A stretch of 64,000 bases of DNA from an uncultured Pseudomonadota bacterium (GTDB lineage Bacteria; Pseudomonadota; Alphaproteobacteria; RF32; CAG-239), in NCBI GenBank assembly GCA_902785935.1, contig CADAAN010000001.1, positions 88,900-152,899 on the forward strand. Reading direction: 5' to 3'. Position numbers and translations under genes: made by a program. The notes under the pieces are model-generated. The model was not told the DNA's origin and did not search any database. It saw only the letters and a list, made by a program, of their open reading frames with translations. Positions 26,345 through 57,765 of the stretch are shown piece by piece. Within the stretch, counting starts at the first letter, position 1. Each line of letters starts with the position of its first letter.

Positions 26345-26917
26345 ATGAAATTTTTATATGCTCGTGTTTCAAGTTCAGACGGTTCGCAAAAACTCGATCG
26401 TCAACTTGTGGAATCTGGTAAATATGATGAAATTTTTGAAGATTACGCTTCAGGTGGTTCAACAAATCGTCCTAAACTGCAAGAAATGTTGAAATGGATT
26501 AGAAAAGGTGATGTGGTGGAAGTTCATAGCATTGACCGCTTAGCAAGAAACATCAATGACCTACTGCAAATCGTTAAAACCATTACAGAAGAACGTCACG
26601 CTGAAATCTACTTTATCAAAGAAAATCTACGTTTTACTGATGATACCGATAATCCATTTAACAAACTAACCCTTCAAATCATAGGTAGTATAGCCGAATT
26701 TGAAAGAAATATGATTAAAATGCGTCAGAAGGAAGGTATTGCTATTGCCAAAGCAAAAGGTGTTTATTCTAAGGAACGGAGCAAAAAATTATCGCTATCC
26801 AAACAAGCCGAATTGAAAAAAGACATTCAAGATAAAGTCCGTGTATGTGAAATCCTCAAGAAATACGGAATAACGAAACCCACATATTATCGCTATAAAG
26901 CACAATGGGAAGAATAA
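26345..26917 (+). CDS. small serine recombinase (resolvase/invertase family) with C-terminal HTH
   Basis: 190 aa; N-terminal YARVSSSDGSQKLDRQ catalytic-serine motif; TTGACA-17-TATACT-like promoter upstream. Confidence 0.85.
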   Translation: MKFLYARVSSSDGSQKLDRQLVESGKYDEIFEDYASGGSTNRPKLQEMLKWIRKGDVVEVHSIDRLARNINDLLQIVKTITEERHAEIYFIKENLRFTDDTDNPFNKLTLQIIGSIAEFERNMIKMRQKEGIAIAKAKGVYSKERSKKLSLSKQAELKKDIQDKVRVCEILKKYGITKPTYYRYKAQWEE

Positions 26918-26946
26918 TAGTAAATGGTTGTAATTTTCCGAAGTTC

Positions 26947-27288
26947 TCAGCCAAAATCTTTCTTTAGGAGTTGTATATATTCTTCTATATGTGCAAGTAG
27001 CTGATCATCTAACTGGTAAATCGTTTGTATGACCTGATTTTCCTTCCTGATACGTGTGACTGATTTGTTTTTTGTTATCCGTGCGTCTAGTAATTCATCA
27101 ATACTTATATCAAAGTAATTAGCTAAAGCACAAACCAACTCTAACTTTGGTATTACTTTTCCTGTTTCCAAATTTGATATTGTTCTCCAACTGACACCTA
27201 CTGCTTCAGCTAATTGTTCTTGAGTTAGCTTTTTTGTTTTGCGTAATGCTTGAACTTTTGAACCAATTTGAACAGGATCAACAGTCAT
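26947..27288 (-). CDS. XRE-family HTH transcriptional regulator
   Basis: HTH LTQEQLAEAVGVSWRTISNLETGK; immediately downstream of the nuclease gene on the same strand. Confidence 0.7.
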   Translation of the reverse strand: MTVDPVQIGSKVQALRKTKKLTQEQLAEAVGVSWRTISNLETGKVIPKLELVCALANYFDISIDELLDARITKNKSVTRIRKENQVIQTIYQLDDQLLAHIEEYIQLLKKDFG

Positions 27289-27289
27289 T

Positions 27290-27757
27290 TTACTTTTTCT
27301 CTTTGGATTTTTTCAATACACTTGATGGTATGTACTTATTACAACCACCTTGATCAAGCATATATTGGTTAACATCAATCACACCAGCGGATTTTATGTC
27401 ATCCAGATACACTTTTCCTAAAATACGACCAAAAGAATCACGTTTTTCCCACTCAACCCGTATATACCGATGATCTTTAAGTAGATTTTTTAGCTGTTTC
27501 CGTGATTGCTTACCGTGTTTAATGACTTCATCAACCGACAAACCATAGTATTTTTGCTGAAATCTGGTGTTGCTATTCTTTCCTGTTTCATAGCAATCAA
27601 CATCCAGCAAGCGAATTTTAGTCGTTTCATTATTAACCAGAGCCGTCAATGTATCGCCATCGTTAATCTTGATGATAGTTGCAACAAATTCGTGTGCTGA
27701 TACCGATTGCACCAACAAAATCGTGAATAAAACCAGATAAAAAACCGTTTTTTTCAT
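27290..27757 (-). CDS. secreted thermonuclease (SNase/micrococcal-nuclease-like)
   Basis: Start placed at MKKTVFYLVLFTILLVQSVSA (signal peptide); SNase-type motifs (IKINDGDTLT...IRLLDVDCYE). Confidence 0.7.
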   Translation of the reverse strand: MKKTVFYLVLFTILLVQSVSAHEFVATIIKINDGDTLTALVNNETTKIRLLDVDCYETGKNSNTRFQQKYYGLSVDEVIKHGKQSRKQLKNLLKDHRYIRVEWEKRDSFGRILGKVYLDDIKSAGVIDVNQYMLDQGGCNKYIPSSVLKKSKEKK

Positions 27758-28370
27758 CAACTCTTCCATAAAAGAAGACCACCTTTTGATTAAGGCGGTC
27801 GGAGAGTTCAAAATCAAGTCTACGAGTTGATCCTTCCAACCTTTAGAGCAAAACTCCTATTGTATACGTTGGAAGCTCCCCGACCATCATCGGGGATATA
27901 TACATCATCAGCCTTTATACAAGCTGACAATGTTGTCGGCGTATATCCACACCGCGTAGACAGAGGTTTTGAAGCCCTCCGCACCTTTTCGGGCACTGAG
28001 CACAGAATAAACCTGTGCCTAACCAGACAATATAGCAAGAATCTTAAAAATCAATAAAAAAGGAGAAAGAAGTTAAAAAGCCTTCTAATTCCGTACATTT
28101 TACTCAGCTAAAATTTCCGTTTATGTCAGATAAATGGAAATTTATTTTCGAAAGTGTCGTCAAGAAAAGAATTCTAAAAATGTAACTAGCGACATTGGGT
28201 TTTCGTCCGCTAGGAGACCTTAGCTTAAGTTACAAAAATGAAAAACTTAGAAGAAGACATAAAAAAACTAATCGGTGCGACAGATGAAACGTTAGATCAA
28301 ACCGAAACATTATTTAAATTTACAAAAGCAATGGAATGTTTGAACAATTGTATAAAGGAGGGAAAAAACA

Positions 28371-29702
28371 ATGAAAGCAGTGACGTTTGCAAGAGTTTCG
28401 TCAAAATATCAGGAACAGAATTACAGTCTGGAAGGGCAAAATACACACCTTTTCAATTATGCCAAAGCAAATAAACTCGACGTTATAAAATCTTATGAGA
28501 TTTCTGAAAGTGCGACAAGAGGTGATCGCACAAAATTTAAGGAAATGATAGATTTTTGTTGTTCGCAAAAGGAATGTGTTTCAATCATAGTAGACGATGT
28601 TGACCGCCTTTTGAGAACGTTTTCGGATGCGCCAGAGATTGAAAAACTTGTACAAGAAGGACAAATAGAGATACATTTCTATAATACGTCTCTTATTTTG
28701 ACGAAAAATTCAACACCTGATGATTATTTAAAATTTCACGAATTAGTTTTAGATTCGGAAAAATATATAGCAAAGTTTAAGAAAAATACAGCTCGTGGTC
28801 GAAATGAAAAAGTTATGGAAAAATGTATGGCCGCTTGGAAAGCACCTTGTGGTTATGAGAATTTTGAGCAAGATGATAAAAAAAAATCGATTCGAAAAAA
28901 AGAACCAGATGCCACAAATCTAAAGAAACTTTTTGAACTTTATTCCTTAGGCGGAACATCAATTCGTAAATTAGTTGCTTTAGCTGATGAGTACGGAATC
29001 AAAACAAAAAATGGAAATAAAATTGGTGTATCCACTATGATTGGGATTTTAAAAAACCCGTTTTATTACGGAGAAATGTGTTATAATGGTAAATTATATC
29101 GACACAATCACGGTGCTATAATATCAAGAGAGTTATGGGAAGCTTGTCAAAAACAGCATAAGCTTCAATCATCAAAGTCATTCAAGCAAGGTCGAATTCC
29201 TTATCTGTATCGGAATGTTTTTAAGGATTGGTACAAAAACCTTACTTGCTCTTGTGAAACAAAGAAAAACAAGTATATCTATATAAGTTACTATAGAGAT
29301 TCTAAGTATAGGTCTTATGTGAATGAAAATGATATTAATGACCAAATTGTTAGCATTCTAAACCAAATTTCAATACCAAAAAATTTTATAGATGATTATA
29401 ATCTTTATATACAATCAACACAACAAGATGAAATTGCATTTAAAGCTGCTGAAAATGGGCATATCAAGGCTGAAATAACAAAATATGATAATAGATTAAG
29501 CAGATTACTTGATAGATTTCTTGATAATGAAATGCCAGAAGAAGAATATGAAAAGAAAAAGCAGGAATATGAAGAAGAAAAATCAAAACTCGAAAAGAAA
29601 ATCCAAAATCAAGGTACAATTGAACCTGATTCAAAACAAATTTCAACAGAATCAATTCATTTATTCTCTCGTTTAGGTGATTCCAAATGGGACTGGATAT
29701 AA
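28371..29702 (+). CDS. large serine recombinase (paralog A), probably frameshifted at its 3' end
   Basis: N-terminal catalytic domain (FARVSSKYQEQNYSLEGQ), recombinase domain and zinc-ribbon (APCGYENF...CSC), strong SD aaggaggg. The ORF stops at 29702 but homology to paralog B continues in another frame to ~29827 (NKQMLLRLIFKELKIRDG vs NKQLLLHFIFEKLELKEG). Confidence 0.8.
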   Translation: MKAVTFARVSSKYQEQNYSLEGQNTHLFNYAKANKLDVIKSYEISESATRGDRTKFKEMIDFCCSQKECVSIIVDDVDRLLRTFSDAPEIEKLVQEGQIEIHFYNTSLILTKNSTPDDYLKFHELVLDSEKYIAKFKKNTARGRNEKVMEKCMAAWKAPCGYENFEQDDKKKSIRKKEPDATNLKKLFELYSLGGTSIRKLVALADEYGIKTKNGNKIGVSTMIGILKNPFYYGEMCYNGKLYRHNHGAIISRELWEACQKQHKLQSSKSFKQGRIPYLYRNVFKDWYKNLTCSCETKKNKYIYISYYRDSKYRSYVNENDINDQIVSILNQISIPKNFIDDYNLYIQSTQQDEIAFKAAENGHIKAEITKYDNRLSRLLDRFLDNEMPEEEYEKKKQEYEEEKSKLEKKIQNQGTIEPDSKQISTESIHLFSRLGDSKWDWI

Positions 29703-29891
29703 AAAACAAGCAAATGTTACTGAGATTGATATTCAAAGAACTCAAGATTCGAGATGGAAATGTTGGGTATAGCCTTAACGAACCATTTTCCTATTTTATT
29801 AAACAAGAATCTCAAGCATCAGCATAACTTTATTAATTAATTTGATTAAATTTCGAAGCTCTGGTAAATTTACCAAAAAGGAAACGAAACT

Positions 29892-31583
29892 ATGAAAGCG
29901 GTAATTTTAACAAGAGTTTCTTCAAAAGAACAAGAAGAAGGGCACAGCTTACCTGCCCAAAATGCAAGGTTAATTGAATATGCCAAGAGAAAGAATCTCG
30001 AAATAATTCGCACATTTCAAATTATCGAATCATCAACACGAGGAAAGCGCAAAGAGTTTATGGCAATGATAAACTTTTGCAAACAACAAAAGGAAACCAT
30101 TGCAATCGTTTGTGAAAATATTGACCGCCTCCAAAGGAGTTTTCGTGAGTCGGTGTTGTTAGACGATTTAATCCGTAAAGAAATAGTTGAACTTCACTTT
30201 TTTCGTGAGGGTATGATAATTGGCAAAAGCTCTACTTCCACCGACATTATGCGTTGGGATTTTGGTGTAATGGGTGCCAAGGCATATGTTCTTCAGCTTT
30301 CTGAAAATGTAAGAAGATCTTTAGAATACAAACTGAATAATGGGGAAGTAATAGGACCAGCACCTTGCGGATATGAGAATTATATAAATGAATACGGGAA
30401 ACATTCTATTCGGAAAAAAGAACCAGAGGCAACTTATCTCAAGAATTTGTTTGAATTATATTCCATTGGTAGTACATCCATCCACCAGTTAACTAAGATG
30501 GCTAATGATTACGGTATCAGAAGTAGAATGGGGAACAAACTTGGTGTGACGTCAATGATTGTAATATTAGATAATCCATTCTACTATGGGGAGATGCTTG
30601 CAAAAGGGCGATTACACCGACATATCTACGATCCGTTAATTACAAAAGAACTTTGGGATGCTTGCCAAGAACAACGGAAACTTCAAACAACGAAACCATT
30701 CAAGCAAGGAGAAATACCTTTTCTTTACAGGGGAATCTTTACGGATCATTACAAACAAAAGATATGTTCCTGCGAGATCAAAAAGAAGAAGTTTGTATAT
30801 GTGGTATGTTACAAAGAAAATGGAACACGAATTTATATACCTGAATATGTTATTGACAAGCAAGTTGAAGATATTTTAGATGATGTAGCTGTACCTGAAC
30901 AAACCATTTCTGATTTTAAGGAATACATTAAATCAAGTAAACAAGCGGAATTGGATTATCAAAGATCCGAATTAGAACGAATAGATGCTAAGCTAAAGAA
31001 AATCGACCAGCGTATGACGGCACTGTTTAATATGCGTTTAGACCAAGAAATAACCAAAGAAGAGTATGAAACCAAACGTGATGAGTATAAACTTGAAAGA
31101 TCTCGATTGGAATTACTGAGAAACGCCCATCACTTAGCAGATGACGGATTTAATGAGACAGTTTTGAATATGTTTGACCTGTTAACATCTGCAAAGGGCG
31201 TATTCAAATCAAATACCAGCGTTCAAAACAAACAATTACTGCTGCATTTCATATTTGAGAAATTGGAACTTAAAGAAGGTGTTATCAGTTATAAGCTGAA
31301 ATCTCCATTCTGCTACACCAAAGTTGATAGTTCGATGTCCAGTATGTCTCCTGTACCAGCAAAAAACGCCAAAAATTGGGAACTCATTGAAAATACAGAA
31401 TTAAATGGCAAATTTGGGGTAATTTCAGGTAATTTTGATGAAGACGTCTGGGAACCGTGTGGAAGCGCTGAAAACAAAGGGCTCTCGACGTGTTGCGAGA
31501 ACCCTGTACAGTTTGGCTGCTTCACCTGGACTCGAACCAAGATTGACGGAGTCAGAATCCGCTGTCCTACCATTAGACGATGA
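29892..31583 (+). CDS. large serine recombinase (paralog B) with ~60-aa C-terminal read-through across tRNA-Gln
   Basis: ~45% identical to paralog A over the catalytic, recombinase and zinc-ribbon domains. Homology with A ends near ...SPFCYTKVD (about 31340), but the frame stays open to 31583, spanning the complementary strand of the tRNA-Gln. Confidence 0.8.
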   Translation: MKAVILTRVSSKEQEEGHSLPAQNARLIEYAKRKNLEIIRTFQIIESSTRGKRKEFMAMINFCKQQKETIAIVCENIDRLQRSFRESVLLDDLIRKEIVELHFFREGMIIGKSSTSTDIMRWDFGVMGAKAYVLQLSENVRRSLEYKLNNGEVIGPAPCGYENYINEYGKHSIRKKEPEATYLKNLFELYSIGSTSIHQLTKMANDYGIRSRMGNKLGVTSMIVILDNPFYYGEMLAKGRLHRHIYDPLITKELWDACQEQRKLQTTKPFKQGEIPFLYRGIFTDHYKQKICSCEIKKKKFVYVVCYKENGTRIYIPEYVIDKQVEDILDDVAVPEQTISDFKEYIKSSKQAELDYQRSELERIDAKLKKIDQRMTALFNMRLDQEITKEEYETKRDEYKLERSRLELLRNAHHLADDGFNETVLNMFDLLTSAKGVFKSNTSVQNKQLLLHFIFEKLELKEGVISYKLKSPFCYTKVDSSMSSMSPVPAKNAKNWELIENTELNGKFGVISGNFDEDVWEPCGSAENKGLSTCCENPVQFGCFTWTRTKIDGVRIRCPTIRR

Positions 31584-31587
31584 AGCA
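31514..31587 (-). tRNA. tRNA-Gln (anticodon CTG)
   Basis: Minus-strand cloverleaf read directly: acceptor tgcttca/tgaagca, anticodon stem gcgga/tccgt with loop ttCTGac, T-arm cttggttcgagtccagg, discriminator g plus CCA; resembles enterobacterial tRNA-Gln anticodon/T arms. Confidence 0.8.
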
Positions 31588-31648
31588 ATTAAACTCGATT
31601 TGAGGTTTCTATATTCTTTTTTTATATTAATGTCAAATATTTTTTTGT

Positions 31649-31679
31649 TTGACAAGCAATTTTTTTTGTGTTTTAATAT
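31649..31679 (+). promoter_or_regulatory. candidate sigma70-type promoter for the LRR-gene leader (TTGACA ... TAATAT)
   Basis: TTGACA at 31649-31654 and taatat at 31674-31679 (19-nt spacer), ~30 nt upstream of the conserved leader. Confidence 0.35.
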
Positions 31680-31707
31680 TACTTAGGCAGGCAAAATGTT
31701 TTGTTTG

Positions 31708-31959
31708 TGGAGTGCCCTGATAGGGTACGGGGCTTTAAAACAGCCTTTCAGATAGACAGTGAAGGATAACGCTGTATTTAGTGTTGTTTTTTTGTTTTAA
31801 ACAATAGTTATCCCCGACAGATGTTGGGGAGTCTGTAACGGATGTACAAGGATATATTCCTAAAGGTTATGGAAGTCATTTTCTATCTGATGATTGTTTT
31901 ACTCCCCGTCGCTCTTTAAAAGTGCGGCTTTTTTAAAACGTAAAAACAGGAGAAATAAT
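31708..31959 (+). promoter_or_regulatory. conserved structured 5' leader (copy 1) ending in a terminator-like hairpin immediately upstream of the RBS of the LRR gene
   Basis: ~75% identical to the minus-strand leader at 57368-57627. Shared blocks: ccctgatagggtacgggg, cagtgaaggataac.ctgt, tagtgttgttttttt, ttatccccga, ggaagtcattt, ccccgtcgctcttt..ggtgcg.cttttttt. Hairpins are maintained with compensatory changes. Confidence 0.5.
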
Positions 31960-32913
31960 ATGAAAAAAAATATTTTAACTTTAAGTTTGATTTTGTGTTT
32001 CAGTCCGATTGGTGTAGCTTCGGCAGATGTTATCAGTTGCACAAACGGCTTAAGAGAAGATGGTGTGACAGCTTGCGATAAGTGCGGGGATCATTGCGAT
32101 TGGGCATTTGATGAACAAACCGGAAATCTTAGCGTATCAGGCAGTGGTGATATGTATGATTTTAATATGACTTTGGACCCCGGACCATGGAAATGGTACA
32201 ACACAGCTCCGTGGAAGGATTTTGCAGGTGACATCACATCTTTGGATGTGAAAGGCTTGTCTTATATCGGAAACGGGGCATTCGGAGGGACTTTAAATAA
32301 CCTGACTTCAGTCAGTTTTGATGATAAGCTCGAACAAATAGGTGGGCAAGCTTTTGATACGGCAAATCTTTCAAATTTAAAACTTCCGGATTCCTTAAAA
32401 AGAATTGACTCTTGGGCTTTTTCCGGTAATCTCAATCTGGCATCCGTTGAAATACCTGATTCTTTGGAATACATAGCTGCCGCAGCATTCTGGAACAGTG
32501 ATATTTCCTCTCTTACATTGCCGGATACAACTGGTATTTCAATCAAGTATCCTTTTGGGGCAAGGCACCTTTCTGATATGCAGATTGTTTGTCGCGGTAG
32601 TGAGGAAAATTGCAACTACCTGAAAGAAAAATTGGCACATTATTGCACGAATCCGAGCGGAGTTGATTGTAATGATGAAACTTATCAAGTTGACTTATCA
32701 GGCAAATTCAGTTTAGCCAATAAGAATAATTGCAACAGTGCGACTTATTATTGGGACGGATTGAGTTGCAAAAAAGAAGGTATAAACGGTGAGAGAACTT
32801 GTGTCAACGGGTTTAGAAAAAATGAGGCATACTGCGCACGCGTCATTTACACCATCGATGAGGCAAATAAGGTGGCGGGCAAGACAAATTCGGTCAAAAT
32901 CAGGTATCGATGA
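31960..32913 (+). CDS. secreted BspA-type leucine-rich-repeat protein with conserved KIRYR C-terminal tail
   Basis: Start placed at MKKNILTLSLILCFSPIGVASA (signal peptide). BspA-like LRR repeats (IGNGAFGG..LTSVSFDDKLEQIGGQAFD...LKLPDSLKRIDSWAFSG). C-terminus RVIYTIDEANKVAGKTNSVKIRYR. Confidence 0.8.
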   Translation: MKKNILTLSLILCFSPIGVASADVISCTNGLREDGVTACDKCGDHCDWAFDEQTGNLSVSGSGDMYDFNMTLDPGPWKWYNTAPWKDFAGDITSLDVKGLSYIGNGAFGGTLNNLTSVSFDDKLEQIGGQAFDTANLSNLKLPDSLKRIDSWAFSGNLNLASVEIPDSLEYIAAAAFWNSDISSLTLPDTTGISIKYPFGARHLSDMQIVCRGSEENCNYLKEKLAHYCTNPSGVDCNDETYQVDLSGKFSLANKNNCNSATYYWDGLSCKKEGINGERTCVNGFRKNEAYCARVIYTIDEANKVAGKTNSVKIRYR

Positions 32914-37277: not shown

Positions 37278-37562
37278 TTAATACCCGTAAACATTCAAGC
37301 AACGATGACTGTATAAGAAATAAGATTTTCTTGTCACATCATAATAAGTGACTTTTTGAATGCCGCCGTTGGCTGCTGCTCCCGGAATAGATACATTGCC
37401 GAACGGACCGAAAATTCCAAACACGAATAAAGCGCATTGACTGCCTGTTTTATCACCCATATCAATCGGATTTTTTGCTTTTGTACGCATCACGGGAATA
37501 GGTGTATACGAACAAGCGTTTATAATTAAACAAAGTCCCAAAACAAATAAAATTTTTTTCAT
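37278..37562 (-). CDS. hypothetical small lipoprotein
   Basis: 94 aa, lipobox LIINAC. Confidence 0.4.
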   Translation of the reverse strand: MKKILFVLGLCLIINACSYTPIPVMRTKAKNPIDMGDKTGSQCALFVFGIFGPFGNVSIPGAAANGGIQKVTYYDVTRKSYFLYSHRCLNVYGY

Positions 37563-37737
37563 CTCAAAGCCTTTTACGAATATATTACGGCTTTATTTTA
37601 AGTACAACATACCTTGAGGTCAAAGCATTTTTAAGTTTTATTTGCAAAATTTTTTAATAATCGTTGTTGACAAGTGTGCTTGAAAAGCATATGATGCCCT
37701 TTGTTGTATTTAACCGTTAAAGGTAATAAAAAATAAA

Positions 37738-56494: not shown

Positions 56495-57367
56495 TTATCT
56501 GTATCTGATGCTGACGCGATTTGTTTTGCCCGCAACTTGATTTGCCTCATCGATGGTATAGATACGCTTTTCTGTTCGGCTCCCGAAATGTGCCGCAATA
56601 TTGCCTTTAGCGTCTAAAACGTATTGCACCCCGTTGATTTCTTTTGTTGTTGCTTTCATAGATTTTAATTCGGGATATCCTGCGTCGTCTAAATTTTTAT
56701 CGCATTTATCCGTATCCCCGATGCAATAAATTTTTATCCTTGATGTATCCGTTAAGGGCTCCCCCTCAACCTCCGGTTTAAATATCGCTCCGAATTTTGT
56801 ATCTTCACCGATTGTCAATGTTTCAATCTCACACCAACTTAAAGCCAAATCCGCGATAGAGGTCACCGAATTAGGAATAATGATATCCTTAAAAGTTCCG
56901 CCTCTGAAGGCTATATCAATCGTTTCAACAGAATCCGGTATATTTAAGCGGTCAATATGACTCCAGTCAAAAGATGCATATTCCAATTTTTTAACCGTAT
57001 CCGGAATAATGATTTCAGGTGCCGTAATTCCGCGAAAAGCGTAACCGTTAACCGCTTCTAAACCGGAGGGAATCTTAATCGAATTTTGGCTTATCATACC
57101 CGAAAAAGCAGAGTCACCAAGATCTTTGATAGAAGAATCAATTTCAATACCTTTGACTGAGCTTGTTTGATCCTTCCAAGGCGCATTTTTATTATCATAC
57201 CAAGATCCTATATTTCCTTTGCCATTTGTTCCACGAATAGACAATATGCCATTTTCAATTTGCCACTCGCAATTTGCCGTATTACCATTGGCGTCTGTGC
57301 CGCAAGCTTCCCATGCATTGGCATTAAAACTTAAAACCAAACCCAAAACAAAAATCCATTTTTTCAT
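56495..57367 (-). CDS. secreted BspA-type LRR protein with KIRYR C-terminal tail
   Basis: Start at MKKWIFVLGLVLSFNANA (signal peptide); LRR motifs (IKDLGDSAFSG...IPSGLEAVNGYAFRG...IPDTVKKLEYASFD...IPDSVETID); C-terminus KRIYTIDEANQVAGKTNRVSIRYR. Confidence 0.8.
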   Translation of the reverse strand: MKKWIFVLGLVLSFNANAWEACGTDANGNTANCEWQIENGILSIRGTNGKGNIGSWYDNKNAPWKDQTSSVKGIEIDSSIKDLGDSAFSGMISQNSIKIPSGLEAVNGYAFRGITAPEIIIPDTVKKLEYASFDWSHIDRLNIPDSVETIDIAFRGGTFKDIIIPNSVTSIADLALSWCEIETLTIGEDTKFGAIFKPEVEGEPLTDTSRIKIYCIGDTDKCDKNLDDAGYPELKSMKATTKEINGVQYVLDAKGNIAAHFGSRTEKRIYTIDEANQVAGKTNRVSIRYR

Positions 57368-57627
57368 ACCATTTCTCCAAATTCTTGTTAAAATCATTAA
57401 AAAAGTCGCACCTTAAAAGAGCGACGGGGAATGCGAAAATCATAGTATCTGAAATGACTTCCGAGGCCTTTAGATGGAATATCTTGAACATTCGCCACGG
57501 ATTCCCCGACTTTTTCGGGGATAAATGTTGGTTTAAAATAAAAAAACAACACTACAAAAACAGTGTTATCCTTCACTGCAGACACTAAGGCCTTCGCAAG
57601 CCCCGTACCCTATCAGGGTACTCAACA
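57368..57627 (-). promoter_or_regulatory. conserved structured 5' leader (copy 2) with terminator-like hairpin just upstream of the RBS of the LRR gene
   Basis: Reverse complement aligns to 31708-31959 over its full length, including the terminal gtcgc-tcttttaaggt-gcgac hairpin plus T6 ending ~25 nt before the ATG; a TTGACA lies ~50 nt upstream on the minus strand. Confidence 0.5.
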
Positions 57628-57765
57628 GAAAAATATTCTTCCTGTTTGAAAGTTATTGTGGCACATTTTAAGATAAATGTCAAAGAAAAATTTTTTTGAG
57701 TTGATAATGGTTTTCAAATGCGCTATATAAGAAGAAAAACAAGAAAAATTGAGGGAATTATAACC

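Follow-up and report, generated by a model that had tools for sequence, protein, structure and literature searches.

The c4 RNA of phage P1 acts through loops complementary to sites near the downstream ribosome-binding site (RBS). sRNA-Xcc1 is an abundant 88-nt small RNA (sRNA) of Xanthomonas campestris (PMC2996969). It occurs in integron cassettes, plasmids and prophages and is found upstream of symE or ORF6N genes (10.1101/2025.06.18.660453; 10.1101/2020.03.17.996009), and its homologues are multi-copy and expressed in Xylella (PMC12189769). In this study, a stretch of 64,000 nt from an uncultured alphaproteobacterium (contig CADAAN010000001.1, positions 88,900 to 152,899; hereafter the window) was investigated for the region preceding a leucine-rich repeat (LRR) protein gene that starts at 31960. 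This region is an undescribed folded RNA of ~240 nt, the leader of a surface-protein gene and one of three copies in the window. A structured 5' leader was strongly supported. It belongs to an RNA family not previously described, which has an expression platform of terminator and antiterminator as well as distant relatives on conjugative plasmids and prophages. The evidence leans towards the leader being a cis-acting, riboswitch-like transcription attenuator, in which the pairing of a 5' hairpin (P0) with the terminator (T) would be set by an effector of the central domain.

Searches of Rfam 15 at its gathering thresholds revealed no family in the window or at 12 rumen/gut genome, 14 metagenome and 11 viral-contig loci; copy 1 and three relatives were also searched at E-value thresholds. 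The searches gave only tRNAs and sub-threshold sRNA-Xcc1 matches, and no covariance model of the c-di-GMP, T-box or other multi-copy riboswitch classes matched these loci. An earlier reading of the letters without database searches (the sequence-only reading) had failed to place the leader in a riboswitch class, and the searches agreed with it. The window leader had no match to sRNA-Xcc1 (RF02221) even at E up to 10. For two high-GC relatives, sRNA-Xcc1 was the top Rfam match (32 and 27.5 bits, covering the 3' half of the RNA), and the gathering score of 53 bits was not reached by the leader family. A genuine sRNA-Xcc1 from a Kingella plasmid, located upstream of a KilA-N gene, scored 56.4 bits and had the family consensus. 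A model of the leader 3' domain aligned in register with this genuine sRNA, but at only 6 bits (E = 0.16), and reciprocal detection was rejected. The Xcc1 consensus had no BLAST match in E. coli genomes. The long leader form is not described in PMC2996969, 10.1101/2025.06.18.660453, 10.1101/2020.03.17.996009 or PMC12189769, and a literature search found no described motif upstream of BspA/LRR genes or traM.

The three window copies were located with covariance model R1 (Table 1). The sequence-only reading had counted two, upstream of two LRR genes; both were recovered, and the count fell short by a third, divergent copy on the minus strand. As had been proposed, the regions upstream of the two LRR genes were homologous, with an alignment spanning their full length. 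Identity from TTGACA to ATG was 65-69%, versus 45-50% in the coding sequences (CDS; shuffled baseline 32%), and in the CDS of copies 1 and 2 only the last ~70 nt, a C-terminal tag, reached 78%. A duplication including the genes was not borne out, since between these paralogues the leader was more conserved than the CDS. The promoter, terminal stem and RBS spacing ascribed to both copies were all present: copies 1 and 2 shared a TTGACA -35 element, a -10 box after 17 nt, a GC stem with U6 and an RBS ~25 nt beyond. Exact-word searches found the conserved blocks only at copies 1 and 2 in the window. The minimum free energy folds of copies 1 and 2 were far more stable than those of shuffled sequences (z = -5.25 and -6.65, respectively). 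The hairpin-1 inner loop of copy 3 was AUACAAUA, identical to the sRNA-Xcc1 consensus AUACAAuA.

The contigs of LRR protein homologues gave 4 further leaders. Compensatory two-sided changes were already found at 30 of 64 predicted pairs in the first 6 leader sequences, and R1 was built from 6 leader copies. When one genome per species was scanned with a fixed-spacing pattern, at least 88 stretches were found, and all those listed came from metagenome-assembled genomes (MAGs) of rumen/gut Alphaproteobacteria. The R1 search of the gathered loci revealed 107 leader copies in such MAGs, with at least 42 in RUG11221, at least 19 in SGB_3385, at least 12 in RGIG5118 and at least 10 in RGIG4812. The leader family is massively expanded ahead of surface-protein genes in these bacteria.

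In the leader fold, hairpin P0 stands on the 5' side; a long helix (P1-H4-H5) then closes a 4- or 5-way junction that includes a pseudoknot, and T comes last. Across the 107 copies, 91.2% of cells were in standard pairs, compared with 71.1% in shuffles, and both-sided changes occurred at 55 of the 64 pairs. The covariation score was 0.577 against 0.216 in shuffles (reached by 0 of 500), and controls in which the 3' partner was slid gave 0.07-0.12. H5 and H10 were 98.5% paired, with all four Watson-Crick pair types at nearly every position. Helix 1 (P0) was 86-95% paired with changes on both sides, helix 11 (the terminator) had both-sided changes at 7 of 7 pairs, and the 15 column pairs of highest mutual information all lay within the structure. 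The fold was also found in an independent set of at least 29 viral-contig stretches; their 24 distinct sequences were 91% paired, with a covariation score of 0.379 versus 0.107, and the terminator helix was not conserved in this set. The structured regulatory leader suggested by the sequence-only reading was upheld by this heavy covariation in both sets, more homologues being what that reading had called for.

The inner part of the structure was corrected after inspection of two subtypes. In subtype A, which includes the window copies, a CAGUG/CACUG stem of 5 bp was found with an H-type pseudoknot between its GGAUAA loop and UUAUCC, the latter sitting just 5' of the CCCC hairpin; the second hairpin, Hb, uses the U-run. 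Subtype B has one long hairpin where subtype A has the stem, pseudoknot and Hb. Linked changes in the pseudoknot were GGAUAG/CUAUCC, GGAUAUAA/UUAUAUCC and, in window copy 3, GGAUAUA/UAUAUCC. As a further check, 47 subtype-A sequences were aligned by MAFFT, which was not structure-fitted, and scored against a hand-drawn structure including the pseudoknot. Pairing was 90.2% versus 79.3% in shuffles and covariation 0.396 versus 0.190 (0 of 500), with 100% pairing in S1, 96% in the pseudoknot, 96.7% in H5, 98.1% in H10 and 94.6% in H10b. These results changed the details of the fold first proposed. Blocks taken as single-stranded were paired (CAGUG with CNCUG in the 5-bp stem, the loop GGAUAA with UUAUCC, and UAGUGUUGUUU with AAACAAUA), and a supposed ggct/agcc hairpin was not a conserved pairing, its bases sitting in the long-range helices P1 and H4; the CCCC/GGGG hairpin and the terminal stem had been drawn correctly. 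An internal 'terminator' (hairpin and U7, 31775-31795) suggested by RNAalifold and a GcvB model was rejected, the U-run being a strand of Hb or of the subtype-B long hairpin. A conserved structured domain, covariation and conserved unpaired nucleotides, as expected of a riboswitch, were all present in the leader.

Of 96 copies, 95 had a more stable fold on the sense strand than on the antisense strand (-84.6 versus -68.4 kcal/mol), so the fold belongs to RNA of the leader's own strand. This strand asymmetry, compensatory covariation, and fixed orientation and promoter spacing led to the rejection, as extremely unlikely, of a selfish miniature inverted-repeat transposable element (MITE), Correia- or ERIC-like, that would have spread through the genome with a palindrome incidental to regulation. 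Such an element would account for the overall palindromic shape (P0:T, P1, H4 and H5 join both flanks), for at least 42 copies in one genome and relatives on plasmids and prophages, and for the recombination of leaders and CDS as separate modules described below. The stems, however, vary yet stay 96-98% paired, with four pair types at single positions, which is the opposite of decaying inverted repeats; G-U pairs favour the sense-strand fold, and neither the orientation relative to the gene nor the promoter distance varies.

A sigma-70-like promoter, with TTGACA or TTTACA separated by 17 nt from a -10 that was often extended, preceded most of 101 copies examined. It lay 19-27 nt upstream of the model start in most promoter-bearing copies, and a hairpin stood at the predicted 5' end of the transcript. 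Directly after the P1 3' strand, 97 of 104 copies had a hairpin (median -9.7 kcal/mol) whose following 8 nt contained at least 5 U. This is the form of an intrinsic terminator, a GC-containing hairpin followed immediately by a U-tract; in copy 1 it is GUCGC...GCGGC with U6. The terminator architecture noticed earlier in two copies held across the family, and the copy-specific alternative pairing described below had statistical support. The gap from terminator to ATG was usually ~20-30 nt. There is therefore no space for a second promoter, and the gene is expressible only by read-through. A leader peptide was rejected: the open reading frame (ORF) from the single conserved AUG had 4-64 codons (at most 8 in 48 of 96 copies), and neither its frame nor its length was conserved. 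An mRNA stability or processing element, either a protective 5' untranslated region or an RNase III/RNase E substrate, would need no conditional switch and would fit the hairpin at the very 5' end and the long double-stranded helices. It is very unlikely, as it leaves unexplained the conserved terminator and U-tract, the copy-specific P0:T pairing, and the conserved unpaired junction nucleotides and pseudoknot.

P0 and T were compared because of a mutual-information hint, and P0 of each copy proved to be nearly the reverse complement of its own terminator. The P0:T duplex had -11.3 kcal/mol within the own copy versus -8.6 kcal/mol in permuted copies (z = -10.9). The difference persisted within RUG11221 alone (-12.6 versus -9.8 kcal/mol, z = -7.0), and z was about -3.5 in SGB_3385 and about -3.1 in RGIG4812. 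The duplex took in all of P0 together with T positions 3-19, antiparallel and in register with the P1 extension; being antiparallel, it extends helix P1 outward. It relied on G-U pairs, and of the two strands, the sense one gave the better duplex in 81 copies and the antisense one in 14. In the MAFFT alignment, the 15 P0:T pairs were 77.1% paired, compared with 72.9 +/- 0.8% in shuffles, of which 0 of 500 reached this value, and 33-44% in slid controls, and 10 of the 15 had both-sided changes. When folding was carried out with P0:T enforced, the two states of copy 2 were isoenergetic (terminator -88.8, P0:T -88.7 kcal/mol). The leader thus has the expression platform of a riboswitch, with mutually exclusive structures (P0 hairpin and terminator versus P0:T).

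In the attenuator reading, every leader of ~240-270 nt would have a strong sigma-70-type promoter to itself and precede the gene of a secreted or surface protein. In one state, both hairpins, P0 and T (the latter with its U-tract), would form, transcription would stop and the gene would be off. In the other, a P0:T helix of 13-15 bp would stack on P1, the terminator would be absent, and read-through would turn the gene on. Pairings 1:2 and 3:4 (P0 and T) would alternate with 2:3 (P0:T) according to attenuator logic; the P1-enclosed domain lies between segments 2 and 3, and its folding would bring them together. An effector, either a small ligand or a protein, that stabilised the central domain would set the balance of states. 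The interpretation given by the sequence-only reading, a structured regulatory leader with a terminator that is a riboswitch or attenuator, was supported. Several points weigh against the attenuator. In copies 1 and 3, the terminator state was favoured over the P0:T state by 6-10 kcal/mol (terminator -81.1 versus P0:T -74.8 kcal/mol in copy 1; -98.6 versus -89.0 kcal/mol in copy 3), the terminators were weak, and the P1-adjacent part of P0:T had modest covariation (z ~2.6). At least 40 copies per genome are unusual for a riboswitch, and a surface-protein regulon points to no ligand; the gene context (surface proteins, GGDEF enzymes, HTH regulators, traM) also suggests none. P0:T covariation was absent from the high-GC relatives (z = +2.4); these use other expression platforms, so the switch may be subfamily-specific. 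Actual termination and read-through are predictions from sequence features; the assignment of the on and off states is likewise deduced, as are the presence and the kind of effector.

Pfam analysis of the downstream proteins revealed LRR_5 (BspA-type LRR) in 58 of the 68 scanned. The others included an outer-membrane beta-barrel, a staphylococcal-nuclease homologue, HTH_3 regulators, and pilin-like, Ephrin_rec_like and RHS proteins. A gene of the same orientation lay immediately downstream of nearly all leaders; no ORF was found for 10 copies, mostly at contig ends. Comparison of window 31400-32700 with an LRR orthologue in RUG11221 (L052:1290-2543) showed the reverse of the paralogues: the CDS were ~92% identical, and the promoters and leaders were only 35-60% identical and of different subtypes (A in the window, B in RUG11221). 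Identity jumped near the start codon, somewhere between ~31930 and ~31975. Leaders and CDS are thus separate modules in recombination, and surface variation could arise in this way.

Accumulation of the leader as an sRNA was also considered, given that sRNA-Xcc1, the closest relative, was detected in that form. The leader would then be mainly a stand-alone, terminator-released sRNA that acts in trans or titrates a protein, and its gene would be expressed by incidental read-through. The abundance of sRNA-Xcc1 (PMC2996969), the expression of its homologues in Xylella (PMC12189769), the strong promoter and terminator of the leader, and the Xcc1-like fold of the isolated 3' domain are consistent with this. 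The reading was nevertheless judged quite unlikely, since nearly every leader is immediately upstream of a same-orientation gene that has no space for its own promoter, the copy-specific P0:T covariation targets the terminator itself, and the complementarity of variable H4/H5 to the downstream mRNA is at control level.

A metagenome scan was performed with a pattern complementary to the first, leaving the AGUCAU, UGAUU and CCCC blocks unfixed. R1 gave at least 99 matches on the metagenome loci, which formed three groups among the matches listed: rumen copies (108-229 bits), sequences with a GC content of ~0.51 beside tRNA-Gln like window copy 1, and many high-GC sequences (0.50-0.68; 25-47 bits), most of full model length. 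The origin of the high-GC relatives (soil, peat, activated sludge) was read from contig names. Genes downstream of the relatives encoded PAS-GGDEF cyclases, outer-membrane beta-barrels, HTH_3 proteins, serine recombinases, lipoproteins and small membrane proteins; the PAS-GGDEF genes were behind leaders in metagenome and prophage (viral) contigs. Expression platforms varied among the relatives, and some were hairpins with GUUUU terminators. Many high-GC relatives had a conserved hairpin, GUUUGCGG-GGGCGCA-CCGCAAAC followed by GUUUU, between the leader domain and the Shine-Dalgarno (SD) sequence. In several viral members, an SD sequence GGGGAG or GGAGA lay 7-13 nt past the complementary ACUCCCC strand. 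SD sequestration by ACUCCCC was rejected as a general mechanism, being plausible only for some high-GC/viral members with the SD 7-13 nt past CCCC.

On plasmid pC of Rhizobium etli CIAT 652, a member (CP001077.1:968220-968424) was found by R1 at 32 bits upstream of an HTH_3 regulator. At least 277 plasmid records contained a match to its 205 nt, among them 122 from Agrobacterium, 64 from Rhizobium and 20 from Bradyrhizobium, and 232 records were typed conjugative. On the octopine Ti plasmid (L250, NC_002377.1:36997-37974), a divergent member (37435-37599) was located directly between a ProQ/FinO-family gene and traM, which there encodes the TraR antiactivator. In four of 5 other plasmids examined, a hypothetical gene of 56-102 aa was just downstream, and the Paracoccus record was unannotated. 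The Ti locus would fit a protein-dependent attenuator in place of a metabolite sensor, in which a dedicated RNA-binding protein (a ProQ/FinO-type chaperone, a NusG paralogue or HTH_3) would decide read-through by binding to the terminator or the conserved junction. ProQ/FinO proteins recognise terminator hairpins with 3' tails, and HTH_3 genes recur behind the leaders. This reading is unlikely: no ProQ/FinO gene was adjacent to the leader in the five other plasmids, no ProQ homologue was found in the window or at any gathered locus (a limited sample), and HTH_3 is a DNA-binding fold. ProQ/FinO was rejected as a general partner, being adjacent only on the Ti plasmid.

Beyond the attenuator itself, the family may tentatively be viewed as a new widespread riboswitch class or effector-dedicated RNA sensor, with an aptamer-like domain of ~180 nt and interchangeable expression platforms, of which sRNA-Xcc1 would be a truncated relative. 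If so, it would control the surface-protein repertoire of gut Alphaproteobacteria (at least 40 genes per genome), plasmid conjugation regulators (traM on Ti, XRE on Rhizobium plasmids), diguanylate cyclases and prophage cargo genes, and sRNA-Xcc1 would not be an independent trans-acting sRNA. If the attenuator reading is right, one shared RNA device in uncultured rumen/gut Alphaproteobacteria would gate dozens of paralogous surface LRR proteins, giving a post-initiation regulon for the cell surface and, because leaders and CDS recombine as separate modules, possibly surface variation. The same fold is found ahead of traM (Ti) and XRE regulators on at least 277 mostly conjugative Agrobacterium/Rhizobium/Bradyrhizobium plasmids, and an undescribed, experimentally tractable RNA regulator may thus act on conjugation and signalling in well-studied bacteria. 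The Rfam family sRNA-Xcc1 would then be part of a larger cis-regulatory RNA superfamily.

The features of the three window copies and of the neighbouring and related loci are listed in Table 1. A conserved C-terminal tag of ~25 aa, specific to each genome, ended the LRR proteins behind the leader and was present in 64 of 73 complete downstream ORFs. In the window it read ...RIYTIDEANxVAGxKNRVSIKYR, and in other MAGs ...RYTPAEAAxVLxDDNTNxVTITFKK or ...RYTLPEADAATSDDNENMIEWIFE; it had no Pfam match and may be a secretion or anchoring signal. A small resolvase, two large serine recombinases and a tRNA-Gln(CTG) gene, which the last serine recombinase ORF overruns, occupy 26345-31587 together with copy 3, its nuclease and its HTH_3 gene; this region looks like a mobile element integrated at tRNA-Gln. 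tRNA-Gln was likewise beside the leader in the metagenome contigs of the L141 group. Two large window ORFs (1391 and 1184 aa) had no leader upstream and no Pfam match except one EGF_laminin. A second, shorter leader type (~170-200 nt), giving weak R1 matches, precedes other surface-protein genes in the same MAGs; GAAAUAAG...CGAAUAA is conserved in it, GGAG/CUCC forms its closing stem, and it carries a terminator. At L006:4640-4746, an LRR_5 gene of a related MAG had a TTGACA promoter and a single-hairpin leader of only ~60 nt, so not all members of the LRR gene family are behind the long leader.

Table 1. Positions of leader parts, associated genes and other features (window coordinates unless a locus is given)
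Feature	Position	Strand	Details
Copy 1 promoter	31649-31677	+	-35 TTGACA 31649-31654, 17-nt spacer, -10 TTTAAT 31672-31677; T-run precedes
Leader RNA copy 1	31686-31934	+	R1 match 31703-31941, 231.7 bits; span from predicted transcription start (from promoter) to end of U6 tract
Copy 1 5'-terminal hairpin	~31687-31708	+	At start of predicted transcript
Copy 1 P0 hairpin	31712-31728	+	GUGCCCU-GAU-AGGGUAC; alternative partner is the terminator (putative antiterminator)
Copy 1 central domain	31729-31907	+	Helix positions from subtype-A alignment
Copy 1 P1	GGGG 31729-32 with CCCC 31904-07	+	Strands 175 nt apart
Copy 1 H4	31736-43 with 31894-901	+	
Copy 1 H5	31748-56 with 31882-90	+	
Copy 1 S1	31757-61 with 31770-74	+	
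Copy 1 pseudoknot	GAUAA 31765-69 with UUAUC 31808-12	+	
Copy 1 Hb	31782-89 with 31799-806	+	
Copy 1 H9	31813-18 with 31823-28	+	
Copy 1 H10	31832-39 with 31866-73	+	Conserved inner loop G.AUGU.CArG...CUAAAGG
Copy 1 terminator hairpin T	31908-31934	+	GUCGC(UCUUUAAAAGU)GCGGC, then U6 31929-31934; read from sequence
Copy 1 RBS	31948-53	+	AGGAGA
Copy 1 gene	ATG 31960, end 32913 including stop	+	Signal-peptide BspA-type LRR protein; Pfam LRR_5, E = 7e-20
Copy 2 promoter	57655-57683	-	TTGACA, 17-nt spacer, CACAAT with TG upstream
Leader RNA copy 2	57399-57648	-	R1 match 57630-57392, 242.4 bits
Copy 2 P0	57621-57605	-	
Copy 2 central domain	57604-57426	-	
Copy 2 terminator T and U6	57425-57399	-	
Copy 2 gene	56495-57367	-	Second BspA-type LRR protein; Pfam LRR_5, E = 6e-19
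Leader RNA copy 3	27764-28005	-	Divergent; R1 77.6 bits, E ~1e-22; R2 62.7 bits
Genes behind copy 3	26947-27760	-	Secreted staphylococcal-nuclease homologue 27760-27290 (Pfam SNase, E = 7e-9), then HTH_3 regulator 27288-26947 (E = 8e-16)
Resolvase	26345-26917		
Serine recombinases	28371-29702 and 29892-31583		
tRNA-Gln(CTG)	31514-31587	-	
ORF, 1391 aa	21950-26125	+	
ORF, 1184 aa	52847-56401	-	
C-terminal tag of LRR proteins	32830-32913 and 56495-56570		Also L003, L006, L011-L098
Shorter leader type	L009:250-400, L002:5311-5508, L065:7143-7347(-), L077:6605-6776(-), L015:1925-2088		
GUUUGCGG-GGGCGCA-CCGCAAAC hairpin	~20-45 nt past CCCC strand		L099, L102, L109, L136, L160 and other high-GC loci

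Compared with sRNA-Xcc1, the 3' half of the leader, taken alone, likewise has two hairpins enclosed by a G-rich/C-rich stem (GGGGAG/CUCCCC), and the inner loop of hairpin 1 is A-rich. The RNAalifold consensus of 33 isolated 3' domains had the RF02221 architecture, defined as a 9-bp G/C closing stem, hairpin 1 (A-rich inner loop and inner hairpin) and hairpin 2. Both RNAs are directly upstream of small mobile-element genes (symE, ORF6N and KilA-N for Xcc1). The leader differs in being ~150 nt longer, its extra 5' half pairing with the region of Xcc1's hairpin 2 and linker to form H5 and H4. Hairpin 2 was not stabilised in the rumen copies (-1.7 versus -1.5 kcal/mol shuffled) and was stabilised in the high-GC relatives (-6.4 versus -3.0 kcal/mol); the competing long-range helix H5 covaried in the rumen and viral-contig sets. 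sRNA-Xcc1 is probably a distant, shorter relative and not the leader's own family. An Xcc1-like 'Fold II' was rejected as the rumen antiterminator, with no terminator-invading covariation, an unstabilised hairpin 2 and an unmatched compensatory change in H9 (L071).

The c4 RNA of phage P1 and Salmonella IsrK are also small leader-derived RNAs of mobile elements, with a closing stem and two hairpins upstream of antirepressor-type genes, and IsrK gave a weak 11-bit match on one relative. Unlike them, the leader had H5/H4 strands whose complementarity to the 200 nt downstream equalled the permuted control, and targeting of the downstream RBS or CDS was rejected. Correia and ERIC elements share with the leader their multiple copies, palindromic shape and co-transcription with neighbour genes; the leader differs in that its structure is kept by compensatory change, its orientation and promoter are fixed, and its pairing is RNA-strand-specific. 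The rejected ALTERNATIVES comprised a leader peptide, c4/IsrK-like targeting, an Xcc1-like antiterminator, a MITE-like repeat and ProQ/FinO as a general partner. From transcription-terminating riboswitches the leader differs in its antiterminator, which uses the separate 5' hairpin P0 and not the P1 3' strand, in its at least 42 copies per genome and in having no Rfam riboswitch match. It resembles them in the complex covarying domain that P1 closes, in the conserved nucleotides of the junction, in the pseudoknot, in the position of the terminator directly past the P1 3' strand, and in an alternative helix that consumes the terminator.

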